Shown here in pieces: positions 37,516 through 47,114 of a stretch of DNA of 64,000 nt. Every line of letters begins with the position of its first letter. Position 1 is the stretch's first letter. The notes below the pieces were generated by a model. That model was not told the DNA's origin, searched no databases, and saw only the letters and a list, made by a program, of their open reading frames with translations. This DNA is from an uncultured Candidatus Saccharibacteria bacterium (lineage in GTDB: Bacteria > Patescibacteriota > Minisyncoccia > Phycocordibacterales > CAIZLB01). Location of the stretch: the NCBI GenBank assembly GCA_964627085.1, contig CAZVIP010000003.1, positions 19,689 to 83,688 on the forward strand, written 5' to 3'. The translations under genes and the position numbers were made by a program.

Positions 37516-38208
37516 ATGCTCGAAACCCACATTAAATCTATAGAAAATTCCTGGAAAAAGATTTTTGATGAATTCTTTATGACGAATTCAGGTTTAGATA
37601 TTTTGAAAAATTTTGATAAAGAGATGGCCGTCGCACCCGAATCCACCCATCCAGCAAAAGAGTTTATTTTTCACGCCTTTAACCTCTGTCCTTTGCAAAA
37701 GACGAAAGTCATTATTCTCGGACAAGATCCATATCACGGCGAAGACCAAGCCATAGGTTTATCTTTTGCCGTACCCAATCACACAAAAATTCCGCCATCA
37801 CTTCAAAATATATTTAAAGAAATTGAAAATGATTTGCAGGTTGAGGTAGATAAAAAGAATGGCGACCTTTCTCGATGGGCAAACCAAGGTGTGCTTCTGC
37901 TAAATAGTGTTCTCTCAGTTCGCGGTGGATTACCTGGATCACATTCACATATTGGATGGGAACATTTTACAGATTACATAATCAAATATCTGAGCGATCA
38001 CACATCAGGGCTCGTCTTTTTGCTCTGGGGAAATTTTGCTAAAAAGAAAAAGTCGTTAATTGATGAGACAAAACATCTTGTACTAGAATCCGCGCACCCT
38101 TCACCACTATCCGCACATGGCAAAGAAGGTTTTTTCGGTAACCACCATTTTTCAAAGGCAAATAACTATTTGAAAGACATTGGTGCGAGTGAGATTGACT
38201 GGAAATAA
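37516..38208 (+). CDS. ung: Uracil-DNA glycosylase (family 1)
   Basis: Motifs GQDPYHG, LLLNSVLSV and HPSPLSA are present. Confidence 0.9.
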   Translation: MLETHIKSIENSWKKIFDEFFMTNSGLDILKNFDKEMAVAPESTHPAKEFIFHAFNLCPLQKTKVIILGQDPYHGEDQAIGLSFAVPNHTKIPPSLQNIFKEIENDLQVEVDKKNGDLSRWANQGVLLLNSVLSVRGGLPGSHSHIGWEHFTDYIIKYLSDHTSGLVFLLWGNFAKKKKSLIDETKHLVLESAHPSPLSAHGKEGFFGNHHFSKANNYLKDIGASEIDWK

Positions 38209-38287
38209 TCTGTGAGGATGAAACTAAGCAACTATATTTTTTTTGAATAGACTCAGACTTATTAATTCATACATGAATGCTATCAAA

Positions 38288-38722
38288 TTACTTTTCTGTC
38301 TTATGGTGTTTTTTCATCTCCCTGCATGAGTTCTTTATCACAGCCTTAAGTACCATGAGATCAACATCCTCAATGCTTTTTATTGCTAAGCATGATTTTC
38401 CAGATAACTTGTACTTACCTAACTTTTCAATATCTTGTCTATACATTTCCCAGCCCATCATGTTGTAAAGTGTAAAACCACCAGATGAGACAGCAAATCC
38501 TGTTATGAGATATGTGTGCTCACCACCCTTACTATCTAAATAATGATATTTCCCAAAACCAAAAATCTTATTCCACATCACACAGGATGAGCCTGAAGCT
38601 TTTGAGTGCAGATCAACCAAAACCGATGCTTCGTTTTGCAATTTCTCTTTCCCTTTAAAGTTATTTTTTATATATTTTTCAGAGCTAATTGCTGTCGGCT
38701 GAGTTTTATTAGTATATGACAT
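38288..38722 (-). CDS. YdhG/DUF1801-like small protein (tentative)
   Basis: About 140 aa, with a central GFAVSSGGFTLY block. The assignment is from memory of the family and is weak. Confidence 0.4.
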   Translation of the reverse strand: MSYTNKTQPTAISSEKYIKNNFKGKEKLQNEASVLVDLHSKASGSSCVMWNKIFGFGKYHYLDSKGGEHTYLITGFAVSSGGFTLYNMMGWEMYRQDIEKLGKYKLSGKSCLAIKSIEDVDLMVLKAVIKNSCREMKKHHKTEK

Positions 38723-38783
38723 GTGTGGATTGTATCTTGATTAATTTACCGAAGATATAATATAAAAGATTGATTACAATTTA

Positions 38784-39239
38784 TTAATTCTTCTCAGCCA
38801 CCTCCTTTAGTTTTTCGAGAGCCTTAGGCCATGTAGCAACAAAATATTCATAATATTCATCGGTTGCATCCATGTCTAATGTAAACAAAGTTGATCCATC
38901 TCTTTCTTCAAAGGTGTAGTTCTCATAACTTGGTGCCCATTTTTTAACCTCTTCACTTGTTGTGTCTTCGATACTATTACTTACATAACCATTATGTTTA
39001 ATTGAAATATATTTAAATTGAATATTATCTGCTATCTCACTAACCATACCTCCTTCACCATTAGACTTTGGGTCTAGACCAAGAAAAAGAATCTTAGAAC
39101 CCTTGTTCCAATCACCTTTAAAATAAGAACCTGGACAAAAAGCCGATGTCCATTCCCTGTACTTATTTTCATCAGTGACAGCATCCCAAACTTTTTCTAC
39201 GCTAGCATTAATCCTTATGCTTAAATTTATTTTTTTCAT
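38784..39239 (-). CDS. SRPBCC / AHSA1-domain protein
   Basis: N-terminal VEKVWDAVTDENKYREW motif and ~150 aa length. Confidence 0.65.
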   Translation of the reverse strand: MKKINLSIRINASVEKVWDAVTDENKYREWTSAFCPGSYFKGDWNKGSKILFLGLDPKSNGEGGMVSEIADNIQFKYISIKHNGYVSNSIEDTTSEEVKKWAPSYENYTFEERDGSTLFTLDMDATDEYYEYFVATWPKALEKLKEVAEKN

Positions 39240-39279
39240 ATTATTTTATTATGTTTATTTTGATTATTACTGAACGACT

Positions 39280-39678
39280 TTAATTTTTACTTTTGCGCTT
39301 ATCAGTACTTATACCCAACACCTCTGCAATCTTCTCCATTTTTTTACCCCTTGCAAGATCGTCAACAAGTTTATCTAAGTACCGCACCTTTTTGGTCAAT
39401 CGGTTATCGATCTCCTCAATCCTATAACCACATATCGACCCGGTTATATTTTTTGCATTTGGATTTAAATTGGCCTCTTCAAAAAAGCCCTTAAATGTAA
39501 TCTTTTGATCAATTAATTCACCTACTCTTTTTTTATTAAAACCAGTCAACCACTCAATCACCTGACACAACTCTTCCTTTGTTCTACCCTTCTTTTCAAC
39601 CTTTTCCACATAGCACGGATAAACAGAGGCAAAAACCATCTTAGCCATTCTATCGTTATGTTCCTTTGTAATTTTCAT
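39280..39678 (-). CDS. DUF2200-family protein
   Basis: MAKMVFASVYPCYVEKVEKKGRTKEE...WLTGF...YLDKLVDDLARGKKMEKI matches the DUF2200 family pattern I remember. Confidence 0.55.
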   Translation of the reverse strand: MKITKEHNDRMAKMVFASVYPCYVEKVEKKGRTKEELCQVIEWLTGFNKKRVGELIDQKITFKGFFEEANLNPNAKNITGSICGYRIEEIDNRLTKKVRYLDKLVDDLARGKKMEKIAEVLGISTDKRKSKN

Positions 39679-39785
39679 ATCTTACTTTTACCCAGTATTG
39701 TATCTGGATTATAGAGTTATTATGTAATAATTTTCTCATATTCCACGAAAACTTGTCTACAAAACTATTTTATCATTTTATTTTG

Positions 39786-39872
39786 CGGAGAGAGGGAGAT
39801 TCGAACTCCCGGTACCCTTTCGAATACGCCACCTTTCCAAGGTGGTACATTAGACCGCTCTGCCATCTCTCC
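39786..39872 (-). tRNA. tRNA-Ser (GGA), long variable arm
   Basis: Reverse complement: GGAGAGA TGGCAGAGCGGTCTAATGTA CCACC TTGGAAA GGTGG + long variable arm + GGGAGTTCGAATCTCCC TCTCTCC G. CCA is not encoded. Confidence 0.85.
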
Positions 39873-40037
39873 AATATATTTGATTTCACCCCTGTTTTGT
39901 TGCGCAGGCAAATATTCGTACATCTGCATTTTATACACCAAAACACATTAAGTTTATATCACATTTTTCTATAATTTTACTAAAGGAAAAATTAATGTTT
40001 ATTTGATACTCTTTTTCCATAAATTTAATGTGGCCTA

Positions 40038-42290
40038 TTGTATATTCTGCATATGCGATCTGGAGCAGAGAAAAATACTGTAAATCAAAAAGACAGAAGC
40101 ATATATGCGTTCGGTCATCCCGGGTGTATTTGTTCTGCAACACCGAGAGCGAATGTAGATAAGCCAATTTTTATTTCTGCACTTGAATCACTTTCACACC
40201 TCAGAACACTTGCGTATAGAAAGTTTGGATTAGGGCATGATTGTGAGAGTTATCTGGTAAGCGTTAATCACATGCGAAACTGTTGCCTATTTTTATCGCA
40301 GATATCAGCTGACGGGACCATAAATTATTACAATCGAAATTCTCAATTTTCTGAGTTGTATCCAGATGATATCGACGACACATTCACCTGTCTTCATATT
40401 TTAAATACATATCCAGACAGCAACCTTTTACCACCCCGTACAGGTGGTTATATACACCCAGAACTTATCGCTCGGACAATTGAGGGTTTGGATAAGATCA
40501 GGTGTAGACCATCAGATATACTAGGAGATACTGGATCTTGCCCGACCACAGATGATGGTATCTTATTTAATACTTGGTATAGCCACCTACCCCAATTCAA
40601 ATCAATTGACATTACAGCCCAAACTTCAGTAATTGCATTTTTTGATAGTGTAGGTTTTGACTGCACAAGACTTAAAGACATAGTCAACGAAGCTTTCATC
40701 CAGAGAATTCAATACGCAACATATTTTGAAGATACACTCTGCCAATTTTCTGAATTCTATCAATCACCTTTTTTGCCTATATATTTATTTAGTAGATCAA
40801 AACTAAGTGGTGATCAGCTAGAGTGTTTTGTCACATCAACATCAGCGCTATTACAGAAAAGTTTTTTCAGGCAGAACAATATTTCTTGTCACGCTTCAAG
40901 CGTGGGAAGCTGGACCAAAATAGACACACTTCTCCTTGTGTGTGCAATAAATTATCAATTACATAGCTTTCTTTCATCAAACAATACAGACCCGGACGTA
41001 CTATTAGGTGCGGGGTGTAATCAGAGCACTCGCCTTATTTATGAAATACATAAAATCAAACATATACTCAAGTATTTTGCAGGACAAAATCAAAGCAAAA
41101 TTTCATATTTAAAAGGATTGAATCCTACCAGATACCCGCTCTATATTGAGAGACAATCCGTGGAAGTAACAACATATGCACATAGCGAAACTTTTATAAA
41201 GAATATTGCAAGAGAAGCAATACTTGGGTCAAGACAAATTCTTTCTAAGTACAACAAGTCGAGTCACCTTGTGGACATTTCCACCCCGAGCTACACCTAC
41301 AAGGATCTAAACTCAATTACTCTCACCGATATTTGCACGGATGAAATACATCTTTGTCTTTTTGAATATATTGAAAAGTTTACCGCAGATGAAAAAACAT
41401 ATATTCAATCTTTAATCAGTGACCTCACAAATTCAACTGACTTTCAGATTGCAAAAGACATCTTTAATTCCAAATTTAGTCAGGTTATCACTTGTGCAAA
41501 TAAAATCGGGGGAGAAGCAGGAAGGCATATTTTTTATTTATATTCTGGAGTTTCAGAGTGGGTCACATATAGACCAGTACATCTATTATCAAATCATTTA
41601 CTCGGGATTATTGGTTTTTATCTATATGACAAAATAATCGACAAAGAGTTAAGTGTTACATATCTCCCTATATCAAAATATTGCATTCAAGTATTTGAAG
41701 AATGGCTTTGCGATATTTTCTTGTTAATTAATACAGACATGAAACTGTCCATATCTCACATACTCTATCTCATGAATATTTCATACCTTGAAGAAGTGCA
41801 AGGTAGACCAATTCCGATCAAAAATATTCACCACAAGTCTATTTGTAGCTCTATTCTGGCACTTATCGTATACCCAAAATACGCAAATCAAACCATCTCA
41901 TATTTTGAACACCTACAATGCGCAAGACAAATCTGTGATGATCACAAAGACTTTGACTCAGATTTCAAGACTGGAAAATCAACATCGATGACTCATTTCT
42001 TGCGAAATGTAAAAAACCAAAACAAAGAAAAAATAACAAGACAAAACAGCGACAATCTCATCCTTGGGCCAATACCAAAATTAGACGAAGAGAAAGTTTA
42101 CACTTACCTTACGAACAAGTGCGCCAAGACCATAGAATGTGTAGCGTACACACAAGACATAAAACTTAGACACATCTACACAAAGTACATAGAAAATCTT
42201 TGTGAAAAAATAGACAAAACAAAAATGGAGCAGAAAATACTTTCTAAACTACGAGATACCGCAGGGACACAGGGCACTCTCCCGCCTTAA
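40038..42290 (+). CDS. Large (750 aa) Cys-rich hypothetical protein with two Asp-rich DDxxD-type motifs (possible isoprenoid-synthase-like fold)
   Basis: DDIDDTF is near the N-terminus. QICDDHKDFDSDFKTGKST near residue ~640 resembles the second Asp-rich motif of trans-prenyl/terpene synthases. There are many Cys residues. The gene has the AT-rich host-like composition. Confidence 0.6.
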   Translation: MYILHMRSGAEKNTVNQKDRSIYAFGHPGCICSATPRANVDKPIFISALESLSHLRTLAYRKFGLGHDCESYLVSVNHMRNCCLFLSQISADGTINYYNRNSQFSELYPDDIDDTFTCLHILNTYPDSNLLPPRTGGYIHPELIARTIEGLDKIRCRPSDILGDTGSCPTTDDGILFNTWYSHLPQFKSIDITAQTSVIAFFDSVGFDCTRLKDIVNEAFIQRIQYATYFEDTLCQFSEFYQSPFLPIYLFSRSKLSGDQLECFVTSTSALLQKSFFRQNNISCHASSVGSWTKIDTLLLVCAINYQLHSFLSSNNTDPDVLLGAGCNQSTRLIYEIHKIKHILKYFAGQNQSKISYLKGLNPTRYPLYIERQSVEVTTYAHSETFIKNIAREAILGSRQILSKYNKSSHLVDISTPSYTYKDLNSITLTDICTDEIHLCLFEYIEKFTADEKTYIQSLISDLTNSTDFQIAKDIFNSKFSQVITCANKIGGEAGRHIFYLYSGVSEWVTYRPVHLLSNHLLGIIGFYLYDKIIDKELSVTYLPISKYCIQVFEEWLCDIFLLINTDMKLSISHILYLMNISYLEEVQGRPIPIKNIHHKSICSSILALIVYPKYANQTISYFEHLQCARQICDDHKDFDSDFKTGKSTSMTHFLRNVKNQNKEKITRQNSDNLILGPIPKLDEEKVYTYLTNKCAKTIECVAYTQDIKLRHIYTKYIENLCEKIDKTKMEQKILSKLRDTAGTQGTLPP

Positions 42291-42953
42291 TTATCTCCCA
42301 CTAAACGCCTCTGCGAGTGGCTTGCCATTCAAGAATACCGCAACAGTAGATGGTGCGTATACAGCATCAAGTGTTTTTTGGATCTGTGCGACAACTCGTG
42401 GACCATCACACACCCCGCCGATTTTTGGTGTGCCAACTAGTCTAACTTCGTACTGACCTGGAATATCTTTGATGGTCTTGATTGTAATTTTTGATCCAGC
42501 AAGAACATTGTATGGCTGTGTTGCTTTTGATGGATTCAATTTCTCTAGACCTTCAAACACTGTATTGTCAAAAAGCTGTCCAAGAACATATGTTGTTGCA
42601 TCTGCTTTTGTTGTTGCAAAAAGATCACCTACTGGAATTTCATACGCAACAACAGCGTCGCCACAACCAATACTCTGCGGATCAGTTGTATTACTTCCAA
42701 ACTTTTCTAAATCAATATAGTAAAGACTTGCTTTTGAAAGAGGTGCATCGAATACTTTTGCAGGATCTGGAACATCTTGCATTACAGCCTTATCAACATA
42801 CTGTTTCGGGTTAGAATCTGATGATCTGATAAGGAACACGAATGCGAAGATCGCCATTATTCCAACAACAAAAGCGGTAGTAAAAATCCTTCTATTTGAT
42901 GTAGGGATTTTTGAGATTGGATTCTGATTTGAATTTGGGTTTTGATTTGTCAT
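42291..42953 (-). CDS. Membrane-anchored GerMN-like domain protein (tentative)
   Basis: N-terminal TM helix. The C-terminal domain carries LDAVYAPSTVAVFLNGKPL, similar to GerMN/Gmad2-type domains. Confidence 0.45.
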   Translation of the reverse strand: MTNQNPNSNQNPISKIPTSNRRIFTTAFVVGIMAIFAFVFLIRSSDSNPKQYVDKAVMQDVPDPAKVFDAPLSKASLYYIDLEKFGSNTTDPQSIGCGDAVVAYEIPVGDLFATTKADATTYVLGQLFDNTVFEGLEKLNPSKATQPYNVLAGSKITIKTIKDIPGQYEVRLVGTPKIGGVCDGPRVVAQIQKTLDAVYAPSTVAVFLNGKPLAEAFSGR

Positions 42954-43136: not shown

Positions 43137-44042
43137 CTATTTTACACTTGATCTAAGCATTGCGATCCTCTCCTCTGCCGGTGGATGTGTCATAAAAAGG
43201 GCGTGAATACCTTTACCAGCAAGACCACCAAATGGATTTGAAATATAAAGGTGTGCAGTCGCGTCTCGTGCCGTCTCCATCGGCTCAGCATGTGTTGATA
43301 TTTTCTCAAGTGCCTTTGCGAGCCCTTCTGGATTTCTTGTTAAAAGAGCAGCGCTTGCATCTGCAAGAAACTCACGTTTGCGTGAAATAGCAAGGCGAAT
43401 CAATAAACCCGCAAGCGGCGCAAGTAAGATGAGTATAAAACCTATAATTATAGAGACACCACCCCTATTATCCTGACCATCCCTCGCACCAAAACCACCA
43501 AATAGCGCAGAGCGCAAAAAGATATCAGATGCAATAGAAAGAAACCCTGCAAGGACAACTGCAATTGTTGAGATTAAAATATCCTTATTTCCGATATGAG
43601 ATAGCTCATGTGCAAGTACACCCTCTAATTCTGATCTATCTAATATTCGAAGGAGTCCTGTAGTCACCGCAATTGCACTATGATTTTTATTTCTACCAGT
43701 TGCGAAAGCATTCGGCACCTGATCTTGGACCAGATACAAACGTGGCACAGGAAGGCCTGCGGTAATACACAAGTTCTCAACCATTCTACGGAGCTCAATA
43801 TATTCAGGGTCTTGTGGACCAATTTCCACTGCCTTTGCCATTTTGAGAGCAACAGTATCAGAATACCAATAGCTAAAAAAGTTCAATACCACACTAAAGA
43901 CTACCGCCCCATATAATATCGATCGGCTATTGAAATAAAAACTCAAAAACCAACCAACAGCAATAATAAGCGAAAACAGGAAGACCATGAGAAACAGTGT
44001 CTTTGTATTATTAGATTCCTGGTGTGTGTATAGTGTTGCCAT
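43137..44042 (-). CDS. htpX: Protease HtpX (M48 zinc metalloprotease)
   Basis: HELSHI zinc motif, TM helices and an HtpX-like N-terminus are present. Confidence 0.85.
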   Translation of the reverse strand: MATLYTHQESNNTKTLFLMVFLFSLIIAVGWFLSFYFNSRSILYGAVVFSVVLNFFSYWYSDTVALKMAKAVEIGPQDPEYIELRRMVENLCITAGLPVPRLYLVQDQVPNAFATGRNKNHSAIAVTTGLLRILDRSELEGVLAHELSHIGNKDILISTIAVVLAGFLSIASDIFLRSALFGGFGARDGQDNRGGVSIIIGFILILLAPLAGLLIRLAISRKREFLADASAALLTRNPEGLAKALEKISTHAEPMETARDATAHLYISNPFGGLAGKGIHALFMTHPPAEERIAMLRSSVK

Positions 44043-44072
44043 AAATACGCAATTATTAACTCTGGTTACTTG

Positions 44073-44642
44073 CTAGAATTTTACCTCCACTGGATTTTGC
44101 ACTGCAGTTTTTTCAGCTTCTGGAATTTCAAAAAATGACATTTTGGTGAAATGAAACATGCCAGCAATGACATTAGATGGAAATGTGTCGATTGAAATAT
44201 TTAATTCACGAACATTACTATTGTAAAAACGTCGTGCTGCCTGAATTTTGTTTTCGGTATCAGATAATTCACGCTGCAATTCCAAGAAGTTTTGATTTGC
44301 CTTGAGATCAGGATATGCCTCAGAGAGTGCAAAGATAGATTTGAGTGACTGACTAATACTGTCTTCTTTTTTGGCACGGTCTTCGATTGATGCATGTTCA
44401 TCGATGGCGTTTATTGCCTGATTTCTCGCCGAGACCACAGCATCAAGTGTGCTTGCCTCATGGGTCGCATAACCTTTAACAGTATTCACGAGGTTTGGAA
44501 TAAGATCGTATCTGCGCTTGAGTTGGATATCAATATCGGCCCATGCCTCTTTTGCCCTATTGATATTCTTAATAAACCCATTATAAAGACCGATAAAACC
44601 CAGAACGAAAGCCAAGACGATGATTGTAACAATAATTAACAT
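44073..44642 (-). CDS. lemA: LemA-family protein
   Basis: N-terminal TM helix plus the LemA pattern (NxxxKEAWADIDIQLKRRYDLIPNLV...). It is paired with htpX in the classic arrangement. Confidence 0.8.
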   Translation of the reverse strand: MLIIVTIIVLAFVLGFIGLYNGFIKNINRAKEAWADIDIQLKRRYDLIPNLVNTVKGYATHEASTLDAVVSARNQAINAIDEHASIEDRAKKEDSISQSLKSIFALSEAYPDLKANQNFLELQRELSDTENKIQAARRFYNSNVRELNISIDTFPSNVIAGMFHFTKMSFFEIPEAEKTAVQNPVEVKF

Positions 44643-44829
44643 ATGACTATAATTATACCCCTACTAAATAATGTGTATACCCCGAAGAGTATAGCGGTGT
44701 TTTGTGGGGCAATATATGCACCGCCACCTTTTAACCTACAAAATGTCAGTTTGCACATATTAATACGCACAAAATTCCATTAAATTTCACATAATCAACC
44801 ACCAGTTGGTTATGATTTACCAGGCTCGA

Positions 44830-45813
44830 TTATTTGTCTGAGGCCGTATCTTTGCTCTCACTTTCACTATGAGCCGCTGTGATTTCCTCCGCTGTATGAG
44901 TCTTTCGAACATCTTTAATCATAAGCAGGATAAAGAGCACCTCAAGCGGAACGATAACAAAATTTGAACCAATAAATGGAATCAGGAATGCAACGAGACC
45001 AATGACAGTGGCAAATGTTCTTGAATAGAGACCAATTGAGTATGCAGTTTTGAATGGCTGTGGTTTTTTGAGTAATCTGAAGATAAGCCAAGCTGCGAAA
45101 CCATAGAGCAATGATGCGAAGAGTGCACCAATATAGAGTGTTGCGAGCAAGAAGAAAAAGGCAATGAACGGCAAGAAGCGAGCAAAGTCTTTTATCCATG
45201 CTGTTTTTTCCAGTAACCACTTTTCATCAATGACAAGGTCGAGATCCTTCATGTCTTTGAATTGCGTAATAGTAATTCTACCTGTATCCCCTTTGAAAAT
45301 AATACCGTCTGCAGTCACAAGTACGAATGTATCTTTTTTCTCAAGATCTGCAGGTGTTGTAGAAGCAGTCACATCAAGGACGAGCAAATTCTTTATACCA
45401 AGCACACTTACAGGTACAGCAGATGCGATAGTCGATGTTGATGTGATGCCTGGGTTAGCTTGCCCCTCGTTTGTGCTAATGACCTGATTTGTTGTATCAA
45501 CAATTGACTGTTTGATACGCACACTTCTTTCATCTTGTGGCAAAGGCACGACAATTGGATTTGAGTTTGTTTCCAACCTACCGTCTTTGACTAAGACTTC
45601 TGCACCTTTTGGTAAAATATTTTGTGCGAGATTATCAATTGCTGGTAAAACCTGTGCGATATTTATTGATAATAATATTGTGAGAAAGAGCGCTGCAATA
45701 ATTTGTAATTTAAAAACAAAACCGAAGCCTATCTTTTTTTCACCTCGAATTACACTGAGGTAAAAATCCTTTTTGGTGAGCGAATTAATTAGTGTGTGGA
45801 AAAATTTCATCAT
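44830..45813 (-). CDS. DUF1189-family membrane protein
   Basis: The N-terminus MMKFFHTLINSLTKKDFYLSVIRGEKKIGFGFVF... resembles the DUF1189 start. C-terminal TM helices are present. Confidence 0.55.
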   Translation of the reverse strand: MMKFFHTLINSLTKKDFYLSVIRGEKKIGFGFVFKLQIIAALFLTILLSINIAQVLPAIDNLAQNILPKGAEVLVKDGRLETNSNPIVVPLPQDERSVRIKQSIVDTTNQVISTNEGQANPGITSTSTIASAVPVSVLGIKNLLVLDVTASTTPADLEKKDTFVLVTADGIIFKGDTGRITITQFKDMKDLDLVIDEKWLLEKTAWIKDFARFLPFIAFFFLLATLYIGALFASLLYGFAAWLIFRLLKKPQPFKTAYSIGLYSRTFATVIGLVAFLIPFIGSNFVIVPLEVLFILLMIKDVRKTHTAEEITAAHSESESKDTASDK

Positions 45814-45842
45814 TTGCCTATTTTAACATACTATTAAAGGAT

Positions 45843-47114
45843 ATGAGTAGAAAACCAGTACTAGCAATATGTCTTGTCGGCCTTTTATCAGTAGGCGCGC
45901 TTAGTGCACTTTGTATTTCCAAGGCAGTCTTTTCGGCACAGGAAATGACCGGGACAAGTTCTGCTCTCGCACCAGACATACAAGATAGCAACCTTCTCTC
46001 ACCTACACCTTCTGCCTCTTCCACTTTTTCACTTCTATTTTTTGGAGACATGATGTTCGATAGAGGTGTGCGCACACAAATCAAGAAAATCGGCGAAGAT
46101 ACTGTTTTCAAAGACTTTACCAAGAAACTCGCGAGTCAATATGATCTCACTATCGCGAACCTCGAAGGACCTGTCACAAACTCAAAATCAAAGTTGGTAA
46201 ATTCTGCAGGTAAAGCAATCCCTGGTTTTACATTTACATTTCCAACATCAACCGCAACTCTTTTGCGAGATAGCGGTGTCGACATAGTGAGTCTCGCAAA
46301 TAATCATACTCAGAATTTTGGACAAAGCGGTCTCAAGGAAACCGCCTTATGGCTTGATAAAGCTAATGTGAATTTTTTTGGTAATCCGACAAATACAAAT
46401 CTAGTGAATATAAATTCCGCGAGTGTGAATTCTACGAGCACAAATTCCGTGGGTGCAAACACAAACCTCACTGGCACCAACTCCGGGATTAATTCAATTT
46501 CAAAAAGGCAGTGTTATAACCAAGACGCAATTTGTATCACATTTATCGGTTGGCATGAATTTGCATATCAAAACAATGCTGAAGTCATCAAAGAAATCAA
46601 ACGAGCCAAAAACGAAATTACTGACATCACTGGTAAACACAGACAATCAGATCTTATCATTGTCCTGCCACATTGGGGTATTGAATATAAAAACAATCCA
46701 AGCAAAAACCAAATCACCCTCGCCTATACCTGGATTGATGCAGGTGCTGATATGGTCGTCGGATCACACCCTCATGTCATACAACCCATTGAAATGTATA
46801 AAGATAAATTGATTTTTTATTCACTTGGAAATTATATATTTGATCAATATTTTTCTTTTGATACCACTCACGGTCTCGCTGTTGGCCTGACATATTCTTT
46901 GAATCCTTTGGAGAAAAACCCAGATGGACAACCCGTAGCACGTATAAAACTAAACTCAATCAAATTAATTCCAATCGAAATTACTGGTACAAAATTGCAG
47001 GAAATATCTGAGACAAATAAAAACACTATGCTAAAGAAATTGGAAAATATTTCGTCCTCTTTCCTCCCAAAAAACAAACTCGAACAGATAAAGAGTGGTG
47101 AAATCGGTTTTTAG
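45843..47114 (+). CDS. CapA / PGA_cap family (poly-gamma-glutamate synthesis-type metallophosphatase) protein
   Basis: Signal/TM start. The blocks LLFFGDMMFDRGV, ANLEGPVT, IVSLANNHTQNFG, HWGIEY and GADMVVGSHPHVIQP match CapA. Confidence 0.7.
   Translation: MSRKPVLAICLVGLLSVGALSALCISKAVFSAQEMTGTSSALAPDIQDSNLLSPTPSASSTFSLLFFGDMMFDRGVRTQIKKIGEDTVFKDFTKKLASQYDLTIANLEGPVTNSKSKLVNSAGKAIPGFTFTFPTSTATLLRDSGVDIVSLANNHTQNFGQSGLKETALWLDKANVNFFGNPTNTNLVNINSASVNSTSTNSVGANTNLTGTNSGINSISKRQCYNQDAICITFIGWHEFAYQNNAEVIKEIKRAKNEITDITGKHRQSDLIIVLPHWGIEYKNNPSKNQITLAYTWIDAGADMVVGSHPHVIQPIEMYKDKLIFYSLGNYIFDQYFSFDTTHGLAVGLTYSLNPLEKNPDGQPVARIKLNSIKLIPIEITGTKLQEISETNKNTMLKKLENISSSFLPKNKLEQIKSGEIGF

Follow-up and report, generated by a model that had tools for sequence, protein, structure and literature searches.

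The 64,000-nucleotide stretch analysed here (the window) belongs to a contig of an uncultured Candidatus Saccharibacteria bacterium, and its forward strand carries a gene that, in our estimate, has about an even chance of encoding a soluble two-domain terpene-synthase-like enzyme. In this putative enzyme a class II terpene cyclase (beta) domain would be joined to a class I isoprenoid-synthase (alpha) domain acting on the diphosphate. The frame is open from a TTG codon at position 40038 to position 42290 (750 amino acids), as listed in a first-pass annotation made from the sequence alone. An identical protein in public assemblies (P0001, 100%), present on 25 contigs from independent samples, starts at the ATG at 40053 and has 745 amino acids; no further in-frame start codon precedes the conserved region in the sequence of the open reading frame (ORF), and the ATG is the more likely start. 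Residue numbers below are those of the 745-residue protein (add 5 for the 750-residue numbering). The first-pass annotation had called the product an orphan, cysteine-rich, possibly terpene/prenyl-synthase-like enzyme, and had pointed to DDIDDTF at 110, TTDDG at 170 and QICDDHKDFDSDFKTGK at 631 (750-residue numbering). All three motifs are where it placed them and the cysteines number 25, close to its estimate. Its broad assignment to isoprenoid-type proteins holds up by homology and by structural modelling; the roles it gave to DDIDDTF and TTDDG do not. The beta-alpha architecture, and the link of the family to two-component systems, had escaped it.

Evidence for this reading comes through a family of relatives. 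Searched directly against Pfam, NCBIfam and PDB sequences, the window protein returned nothing meaningful even at E≤10, and the sole PDB sequence match, an oxaloacetate decarboxylase (E 0.041), was judged to be noise. A word-indexed search found two relatives only, P0002 and P0003, the closest, at 28–31% identity. When a profile built from the three closest sequences was run exhaustively with HMMER, it retrieved 654 cluster representatives at E≤1e-3 (276 at E≤1e-10), so the protein is not an orphan. Nearly all of these relatives have 600–680 amino acids, and they usually match in two stretches, one N-terminal and one C-terminal. Those that are named come from metagenome-assembled genomes (MAGs) of Candidatus Parcubacteria, Levybacteria, Pacebacteria and the ‘Patescibacteria group’. 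Their NCBI names are ‘hypothetical protein’ and, now and then, ‘terpene cyclase/mutase family protein’. A close relative occurs in the MAG of an uncultured Candidatus Saccharibacteria bacterium, with the same downstream gene order as in the window. Judged by its sequence, the window protein is a fast-evolving and very divergent Saccharibacteria member of a family that its named relatives place in the Patescibacteria. Several relatives, among them P0172, P0184 and P0193, carry the precomputed Pfam accession PF28380.1; a recent Pfam release may already define a domain there. At one metagenomic locus (L031, 4193-6181) two neighbouring ORFs stand in place of a single family gene, owing either to a frameshift or pseudogene or to an assembly error.

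Conservation was measured in an alignment of 318 non-identical family members. Thirteen positions are 99–100% conserved (P104, D106, D108, T110, W175, D186, Y236, D526, D530, Q626, D629, D633 and D637), as is the pair K/R595-S596 at 99%, and the window protein keeps every family-invariant residue. This is stronger evidence than composition: with 6% Asp, the protein has exactly two DDxxD motifs against about 0.16 expected (Poisson P ~0.01, by arithmetic), which is only mildly unusual. The cysteine content (~3.3–3.4%) is the maximum in a family whose median is 1.2%, and just two cysteines are common to the protein and its two closest relatives; we dropped cysteine richness as a functional feature and regard it as a quirk of this one protein.

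The N-terminal domain carries the first half of the argument. A 66-sequence family profile matches the cyclase (TC-beta) domain of the Aquimarina spongiae drimenol synthase AsDMS (PDB 9mhs, 9mlo, 9m7d) with E 2.6e-18 over profile positions 35-312, and also, weakly, fungal AstC. The alignment sets family PYPDDxDDT against FPDDLDTT and SxYY against RYY, so that the PDDIDDT of the window protein is in register with PDDLDTT; within this DxD(D/T)T acid motif, D106 is 100% and D108 99% conserved. Mutagenesis of AsDMS found D331, the proton donor D333 and Y427, which hydrogen bonds to D333, to be indispensable, and Y373 contacts the diphosphate (PMC12365925; numbering in the AsDMS chain plus 10 gives the numbering of that paper, an offset confirmed by a 2026 preprint in which D323 is D333). 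Relatives also show sub-threshold or borderline matches to SQHop_cyclase_C (11 of 66), TED_complement, Prenyltrans and TIGR01787 squalene_cyclas. With the family alignment as input, AlphaFold (AF2) modelled the window protein at a mean predicted local distance difference test (pLDDT) of 82.9 and a predicted template modelling score of 0.85, as against a pLDDT of 31 from the single sequence. The top PDB matches of this model in Foldseek are drimenol synthase chains (9m7f/9mhs, E 2e-4), and C3d-type toroids are also among the matches. Only one barrel, of about 370 residues, stands ahead of the alpha domain, and there is no gamma domain; no HAD domain was found in any family member searched, the part outside the barrel being the C-terminal helical domain.

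Profile homology and the predicted structure together show that the N-terminal region is a class II terpene cyclase domain with one barrel, in which the putative general acid D108, its companion D106 and Y236, the predicted hydrogen-bond partner of the acid, are all preserved. The first-pass annotation had read DDIDDTF as a metal-binding DDxxD. Because DDIDDT corresponds residue for residue with the D331/D333 motif of AsDMS, it is instead a class II DxDDT acid motif, placed at the start of a helix in the model. TTDDG, which had been compared with the DxDD of class II cyclases, was rejected for that role: it is an unconserved, lineage-specific insertion without a counterpart in the closest homologues and is modelled with low confidence.

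The C-terminal domain is all-helical. After AsDMS, the Foldseek matches of the model are mostly trans-prenyl diphosphate synthases (octaprenyl, farnesyl, decaprenyl, solanesyl and geranylgeranyl; dozens in all) with probability ~1.0 and target-normalised template modelling scores of ~0.5; the alignment with taxadiene synthase extends over 715 columns (E 0.025). A hidden Markov model (HMM) of the C-terminal domain alone gave nothing above noise against PDB and Pfam, and a 24-sequence profile of it aligned with Escherichia coli IspB alone just at the second aspartate-rich motif (SARM; E 0.0079, probability 5%). When a 318-sequence profile was compared by hhalign with an isoprenyl diphosphate synthase (IPPS) profile built from 11 neighbouring polyprenyl synthases and E. 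coli IspB, the match had E 9.3e-6 locally (169 columns) and 1.1e-8 globally (266 columns), against 0.2–0.6 for three controls, and all four motifs were in register: the first aspartate-rich motif (FARM), KT, SARM and DxxEGKxT. The window protein itself matches no Pfam family. One relative, P0057, passes the gathering score for Terpene_syn_C_2 (25.9 bits against a cutoff of 23.7, residues 402-542), in a match that runs from its first Asp motif to past its second; across the 66 members, three match Terpene_syn_C_2 or Terpene_synth_C at E≤0.01. Structure prediction followed by Foldseek, as suggested in the first-pass annotation, recovers isoprenoid folds.

Within this domain, the first Asp-rich motif (YDDIxD in the family, YDKIID in the window protein) aligns with the FARM sequence HDDxxD, and D526 and D530 are invariant. 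The second Asp block keeps Q626, D629, D633 and D637 invariant; its ARQLxDDxHD (ARQICDDHKD in the window protein) aligns with the SARM sequence FQxxDDxxD of IspB and the IPPS profile, and the DLxxGxxT that follows (DFKTGKST) with DxxEGKxT. The resemblance of QICDDHKDFDSDFKTGK to the second Asp-rich motif of trans-isoprenyl synthases, which the first-pass annotation had noticed, is therefore real. D629-D-x-x-D633-x-x-x-D637 also has the i, i+4, i+8 spacing of an NSE/DTE motif, and it aligns better with the SARM and DxxxGK of prenyl synthases. In the model each of the two motifs occupies the C-terminal end of a long helix (pLDDT 96–97) and, like DDIDDTF, is not in a disordered loop. In trans-prenyl synthases, FARM- and SARM-type Asp motifs, Lys/Ser and DxxxGKxT hold Mg2+ and the allylic diphosphate. 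The profile comparison and the model show the C-terminal domain to have a class I isoprenoid-synthase fold and remote homology to trans-prenyl diphosphate synthases, and the alignment shows that it keeps the two Asp-rich motifs, which would face each other, with the Lys/Ser pair and DxxxGKxT.

Does this domain elongate a prenyl chain? In such an enzyme, similar to fungal PvCPS, the alpha domain would join dimethylallyl diphosphate to isopentenyl diphosphate (IPP) and the beta domain would cyclise the product. By fold and by profile the alpha domain is indeed closest to chain-elongating trans-prenyl synthases and not to cyclases; the FARM-, KT-, SARM- and GKxT-equivalent motifs are all there, and a single chain of PvCPS has its activities in this same order (PMC12393454). 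However, the 318 members share no Lys or Arg in the columns equivalent to the IPP-binding GKRxR (upstream of FARM) and RRG (after FARM), Pfam polyprenyl_synt recognises none of the members (no match for the window protein; best of 24 C-terminal domains E 0.11), and the canonical polyprenyl synthase that directly adjoins the family gene in about 20% of loci (see below) would be redundant. We consider chain elongation by this domain very unlikely. Given the established roles of its motifs, the alpha domain resembles a class I module derived from prenyl synthases, one that would bind and ionise an allylic diphosphate with no elongation.

Under the two-domain reading, a separate polyprenyl synthase, such as the one encoded next door in about one fifth of relatives, would supply a linear all-trans prenyl diphosphate. 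The beta domain would cyclise it by protonation, and the alpha domain would bind the diphosphate through Mg2+ and ionise or remove it to complete the cyclic terpene. The opposite order, with the alpha domain acting first, would be equally compatible with the data. The scheme would follow the logic of drimenol synthase, where a phosphatase accompanies the cyclase, or of abietadiene synthase, where class II is combined with class I.

Each of these known systems shares part of the design. AsDMS (HAD-TCbeta; PDB 9mhs/9m7d/9m7f) and AstC have a single-barrel class II beta domain and no gamma domain, as here, with a PDDxD(D/T)T acid motif, the partner Tyr, detectable homology and a second domain for the diphosphate end; their partner is an N-terminal HAD phosphatase, whereas the new family has a class I isoprenoid-synthase fold at the C-terminus, so the order is reversed. 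Plant abietadiene synthase and the bacterial tridomain DCS (PMC12164552) likewise combine, in one chain, a protonation site of DxDD type with a metal site rich in Asp, class II N-terminal and class I C-terminal, but they are alpha-beta-gamma proteins whose class II site lies at the interface of beta and gamma; in the new family the gamma domain is missing, and the alpha domain resembles prenyl synthases more closely than cyclases. PvCPS also fuses a prenyl-synthase-fold alpha domain to a class II cyclase, but has beta-gamma domains and a complete, active geranylgeranyl diphosphate synthase, whereas the new family is without IPP-binding motifs. The trans-isoprenyl diphosphate synthases (IspA, IspB, GGPPS; PF00348) have the same fold and the same order of FARM, KT, FQxxDDxxD and DxxxGKxT; unlike them, the new family lacks GKRxR, RRG and the Pfam match, has a shorter loop after SARM and is fused to a cyclase domain. 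Finally, plant alpha-beta class I terpene synthases have the same beta-then-alpha didomain order, but their beta domain lacks DxDD and is without catalytic function, whereas the class II residues are invariant in the new family. A recent survey of type II cyclases gives only MstE, drimenol synthase and plant rearrangements, and in the literature on terpene synthases and cyclases in Saccharibacteria, Patescibacteria, Parcubacteria and the Candidate Phyla Radiation (CPR) we found no description of the family. The pairing of a class II beta domain with a class I alpha domain is absent from published lists of terpene cyclase types.

The genomic surroundings of distant relatives were taken from 80 metagenome loci retrieved with 12 closer sequences, plus four loci from exact look-ups. 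In these relatives, which are of Parcubacteria/Microgenomates type, the family gene stands third in an operon, after an OmpR-type response regulator and a multi-pass membrane histidine kinase. The kinase (~450 amino acids, several N-terminal membrane segments) is directly upstream on the same strand in 56 of the 63 loci that have at least 1.5 kb of upstream sequence, and the gap between the two genes has a median of -4, typically a 4-base overlap of the kinase stop with the start of the family gene; the regulator precedes the kinase in 44 of those 56. Expression of the family gene in most of the family is probably under the co-transcribed kinase and regulator. A canonical trans-polyprenyl synthase (HDDxxDxxxxRRG, FQxQDDxLD) occupies the next position (+1) in 16 loci when judged by phmmer against IspB, 10 of them on the same strand, or in 20 when judged by clustering, with same-strand gaps mostly of -4 to -8 and E values down to 4e-32 against E. 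coli IspB. One locus also contains BacA and an ABC transporter.

The Saccharibacteria clade is arranged differently. Its eight distinct loci are the window together with L001-L006 (counted as one), L007, L008, L009, L014, L097, L098 and L099, and in all eight a convergent gene for a membrane-anchored protein of 206–233 amino acids abuts or overlaps the 3′ end of the terpene-synthase-like gene. Within the clade this partner is better conserved (31–54% identity) than the terpene-synthase-like protein (24–31%). Its matches to Germane/GerMN are weak and sub-threshold (two homologues, E 8e-4 and 8e-3); it has conserved GCGD and GGxCDxPR cysteine motifs and no solved homologue. Two-component genes are close by but non-adjacent in L014, L097 and L099, and the clade has lost the linkage to kinase and regulator. 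Further downstream the Saccharibacteria loci have a variable block of PMSR, M48 peptidase, LemA, DUF1189 and PGA_cap genes. In the window (43137-47114), as in L009, L014 and L097-L099, this block comprises an HtpX-like M48 peptidase, LemA, a DUF1189/Yip1-like membrane protein and PGA_cap, and PMSR/SelR is inserted in some genomes.

Several points weigh against the two-domain enzyme. The catalytic role is a prediction for every member of the family, and for the window protein the assignments are transitive through distant relatives, with no direct Pfam, NCBIfam or PDB sequence match of its own; a profile of the three Saccharibacteria sequences reaches AsDMS just at E 0.063 and IPPS at E 0.0013. 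In that clade the middle Asp of the first Asp-rich motif is Lys, and a Gly that is 98% conserved (598) is Cys. Nowhere in the 64-kb window is there a histidine kinase, a response regulator, a trans-polyprenyl synthase or UppS. Saccharimonadia are reported to have only C10–C20 elongation and to be without the C5 pathway (PMC9166423); more widely in the CPR, most classes have only C10–C20 elongation and fatty-acid synthesis is absent (PMC9166423), and the mevalonate pathway is patchy (PMC6107057). Substrate supply is thus a plausible supposition. One could go further and suppose that the motifs are chance occurrences in a decaying or non-isoprenoid helical protein, as the lack of direct matches, the very fast evolution beside a better conserved neighbour and the unusual composition (3.4% Cys) might suggest. 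We regard this as highly improbable: the frame is uninterrupted and recurs without change on 25 contigs from independent samples, all family-invariant residues are kept, and the confident two-domain model matches isoprenoid enzymes in both of its folds.

A further point against, and a difference from AsDMS, is that the diphosphate-binding Arg residues of the AsDMS beta domain are not conserved in the family. This loss would suit an enzyme of meroterpenoid type, in which the alpha domain prenylates an acceptor other than IPP, or ionises the chain, and the beta domain then cyclises a diphosphate-free substrate, as in MstE or sporulenol synthase; here the class I step would come first. Substrate binding in AsDMS has been described as MstE-like (PMC12365925), and the alpha domain has an allylic-diphosphate site but no IPP site. 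On the other side, 59% of members have Arg or Lys at position 173, the Tyr residues through which AsDMS contacts the diphosphate have W175 and Y235 as their aligned counterparts, and the examined loci hold no conserved candidate for an acceptor-forming gene near the family gene. We think a meroterpenoid-type reaction unlikely.

The tight coupling to the kinase gene would also fit a regulatory role, and this too weighs against an enzyme. A regulatory accessory might bind a polyprenyl (di)phosphate, for instance from the cell-wall lipid carrier pool, and report to the membrane histidine kinase, the Saccharibacteria version being a remnant. Translational coupling of the kind seen in 56 of 63 loci is common for accessory proteins of kinases, the only possible input region of the kinase is its membrane-spanning segments, and the locus with BacA and an ABC transporter would be in keeping with such a role. 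Yet conservation across very divergent sequences reaches 99–100% at the general acid, at the Asp and Tyr that partner it and at every metal-binding Asp, which exceeds what ligand binding alone would need, and the Saccharibacteria clade retains the catalytic-type residues though the kinase is no longer adjacent. A purely regulatory function therefore seems doubtful to us, and we retain the two-domain beta-alpha enzyme as the preferred, if evenly balanced, interpretation.

Table 1. Positions of the terpene-synthase-like gene, its predicted domains and motifs, and neighbouring features (window coordinates unless a locus label is given)
Feature	Position	Strand	Evidence or remark
Coding sequence of the 745-residue beta-alpha terpene-synthase-like protein	40053..42290	+	public gene calls; ORF list start TTG 40038
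Predicted single alpha/alpha-barrel, class II terpene cyclase beta type, ~residues 31-405	40143..41267	+	family profile, Foldseek, SQHop_cyclase_C/squalene_cyclas matches of relatives
Putative class II general-acid motif D105-D-I-D-D-T110	40365..40382	+	D106 = AsDMS D331, D108 = AsDMS general acid D333; pLDDT 94
TTDDG segment, lineage-specific insertion	40545..40559	+	gap in P0002 and P0003; pLDDT 58–68
W175, invariant, aligned with AsDMS Y373	40575..40577	+	profile alignment and conservation
Y236 (in SEFY), aligned with AsDMS Y427	40758..40760	+	99% Tyr in 318 members
Predicted all-helical class I isoprenoid-synthase (alpha) domain, ~residues 424-739	41322..42269	+	Foldseek, hhalign, P0057 Pfam match
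First Asp-rich motif D526-K-I-I-D530, FARM equivalent	41628..41642	+	end of helix 508-529, pLDDT 96
K595-S596, aligned with the KT motif of trans-prenyl synthases	41835..41840	+	K/R 99%, S 99%
Second Asp-rich block Q626-ICDDHKDFDSDFKTGKS-T644, SARM equivalent plus DxxxGKxT	41928..41984	+	helix 608-632, pLDDT 97
tRNA-Ser(GGA), upstream boundary of the single-gene unit	39785..39872	-	
Convergent 220-residue protein, N-terminal membrane anchor, weak GerMN similarity	42291..42953	-	begins at the end of the terpene-synthase-like gene
Convergent partner gene in other loci	L007 2277-2897; L008 3396-4073; L009 11856-12521; L014 10093-10722; L097 8288-8965; L098 7883-8536; L099 7995-8696		
Regulator-kinase-family gene operons	L010 7654-11932; L011 7662-11944; L013 5565-10052; 56/63 among L017-L096		
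Adjacent polyprenyl synthase, examples	L035 1934-2968; L027 5102-6133; L046 7919-8953; L063 7892-8926; L077 7944-8990		

In the window, the gene is bounded upstream by a tRNA-Ser gene on the opposite strand and downstream by the convergent gene, and therefore forms a single-gene transcription unit, as the first-pass annotation had it. A promoter and terminator scan around the gene gave nothing above chance, and an Rfam scan found three tRNAs only, with no Rfam family matching the leader. The 180-bp leader between tRNA and gene contains a mini-ORF of four codons (ATG TTT ATT TGA, 39995-40006) preceded by AAAGGA, with no evidence of function. The GC content at 38000-42000, which takes in the gene and its upstream neighbours, is 34–36%, compared with ~40–47% in the rest of the window.

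The family bears on how isoprenoids may be used in a group of bacteria whose membranes have an origin called enigmatic (PMC9166423). The Patescibacteria (CPR) are reported to be without squalene-hopene cyclase (PMC7306690) as well as fatty-acid synthesis, and if the two-domain reading is true, it would place terpene cyclisation in this radiation. One may speculate, at some distance from the data and with little confidence, that a lineage-wide beta-alpha class II/class I synthase under an intramembrane-sensing kinase would form a membrane- or envelope-homeostasis module making a cyclic isoprenoid lipid, a hopanoid surrogate, and that the Saccharibacteria version was rewired to the GerMN-like envelope protein. 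If the family is active, it would add to current terpene-cyclase summaries an architecture that they do not contain, an alpha-beta didomain with the class II machinery in its beta domain. Several hundred ‘hypothetical proteins’ become a defined family with predicted catalytic residues, and the near-universal operon with a membrane histidine kinase offers a testable link between envelope sensing and isoprenoid chemistry.

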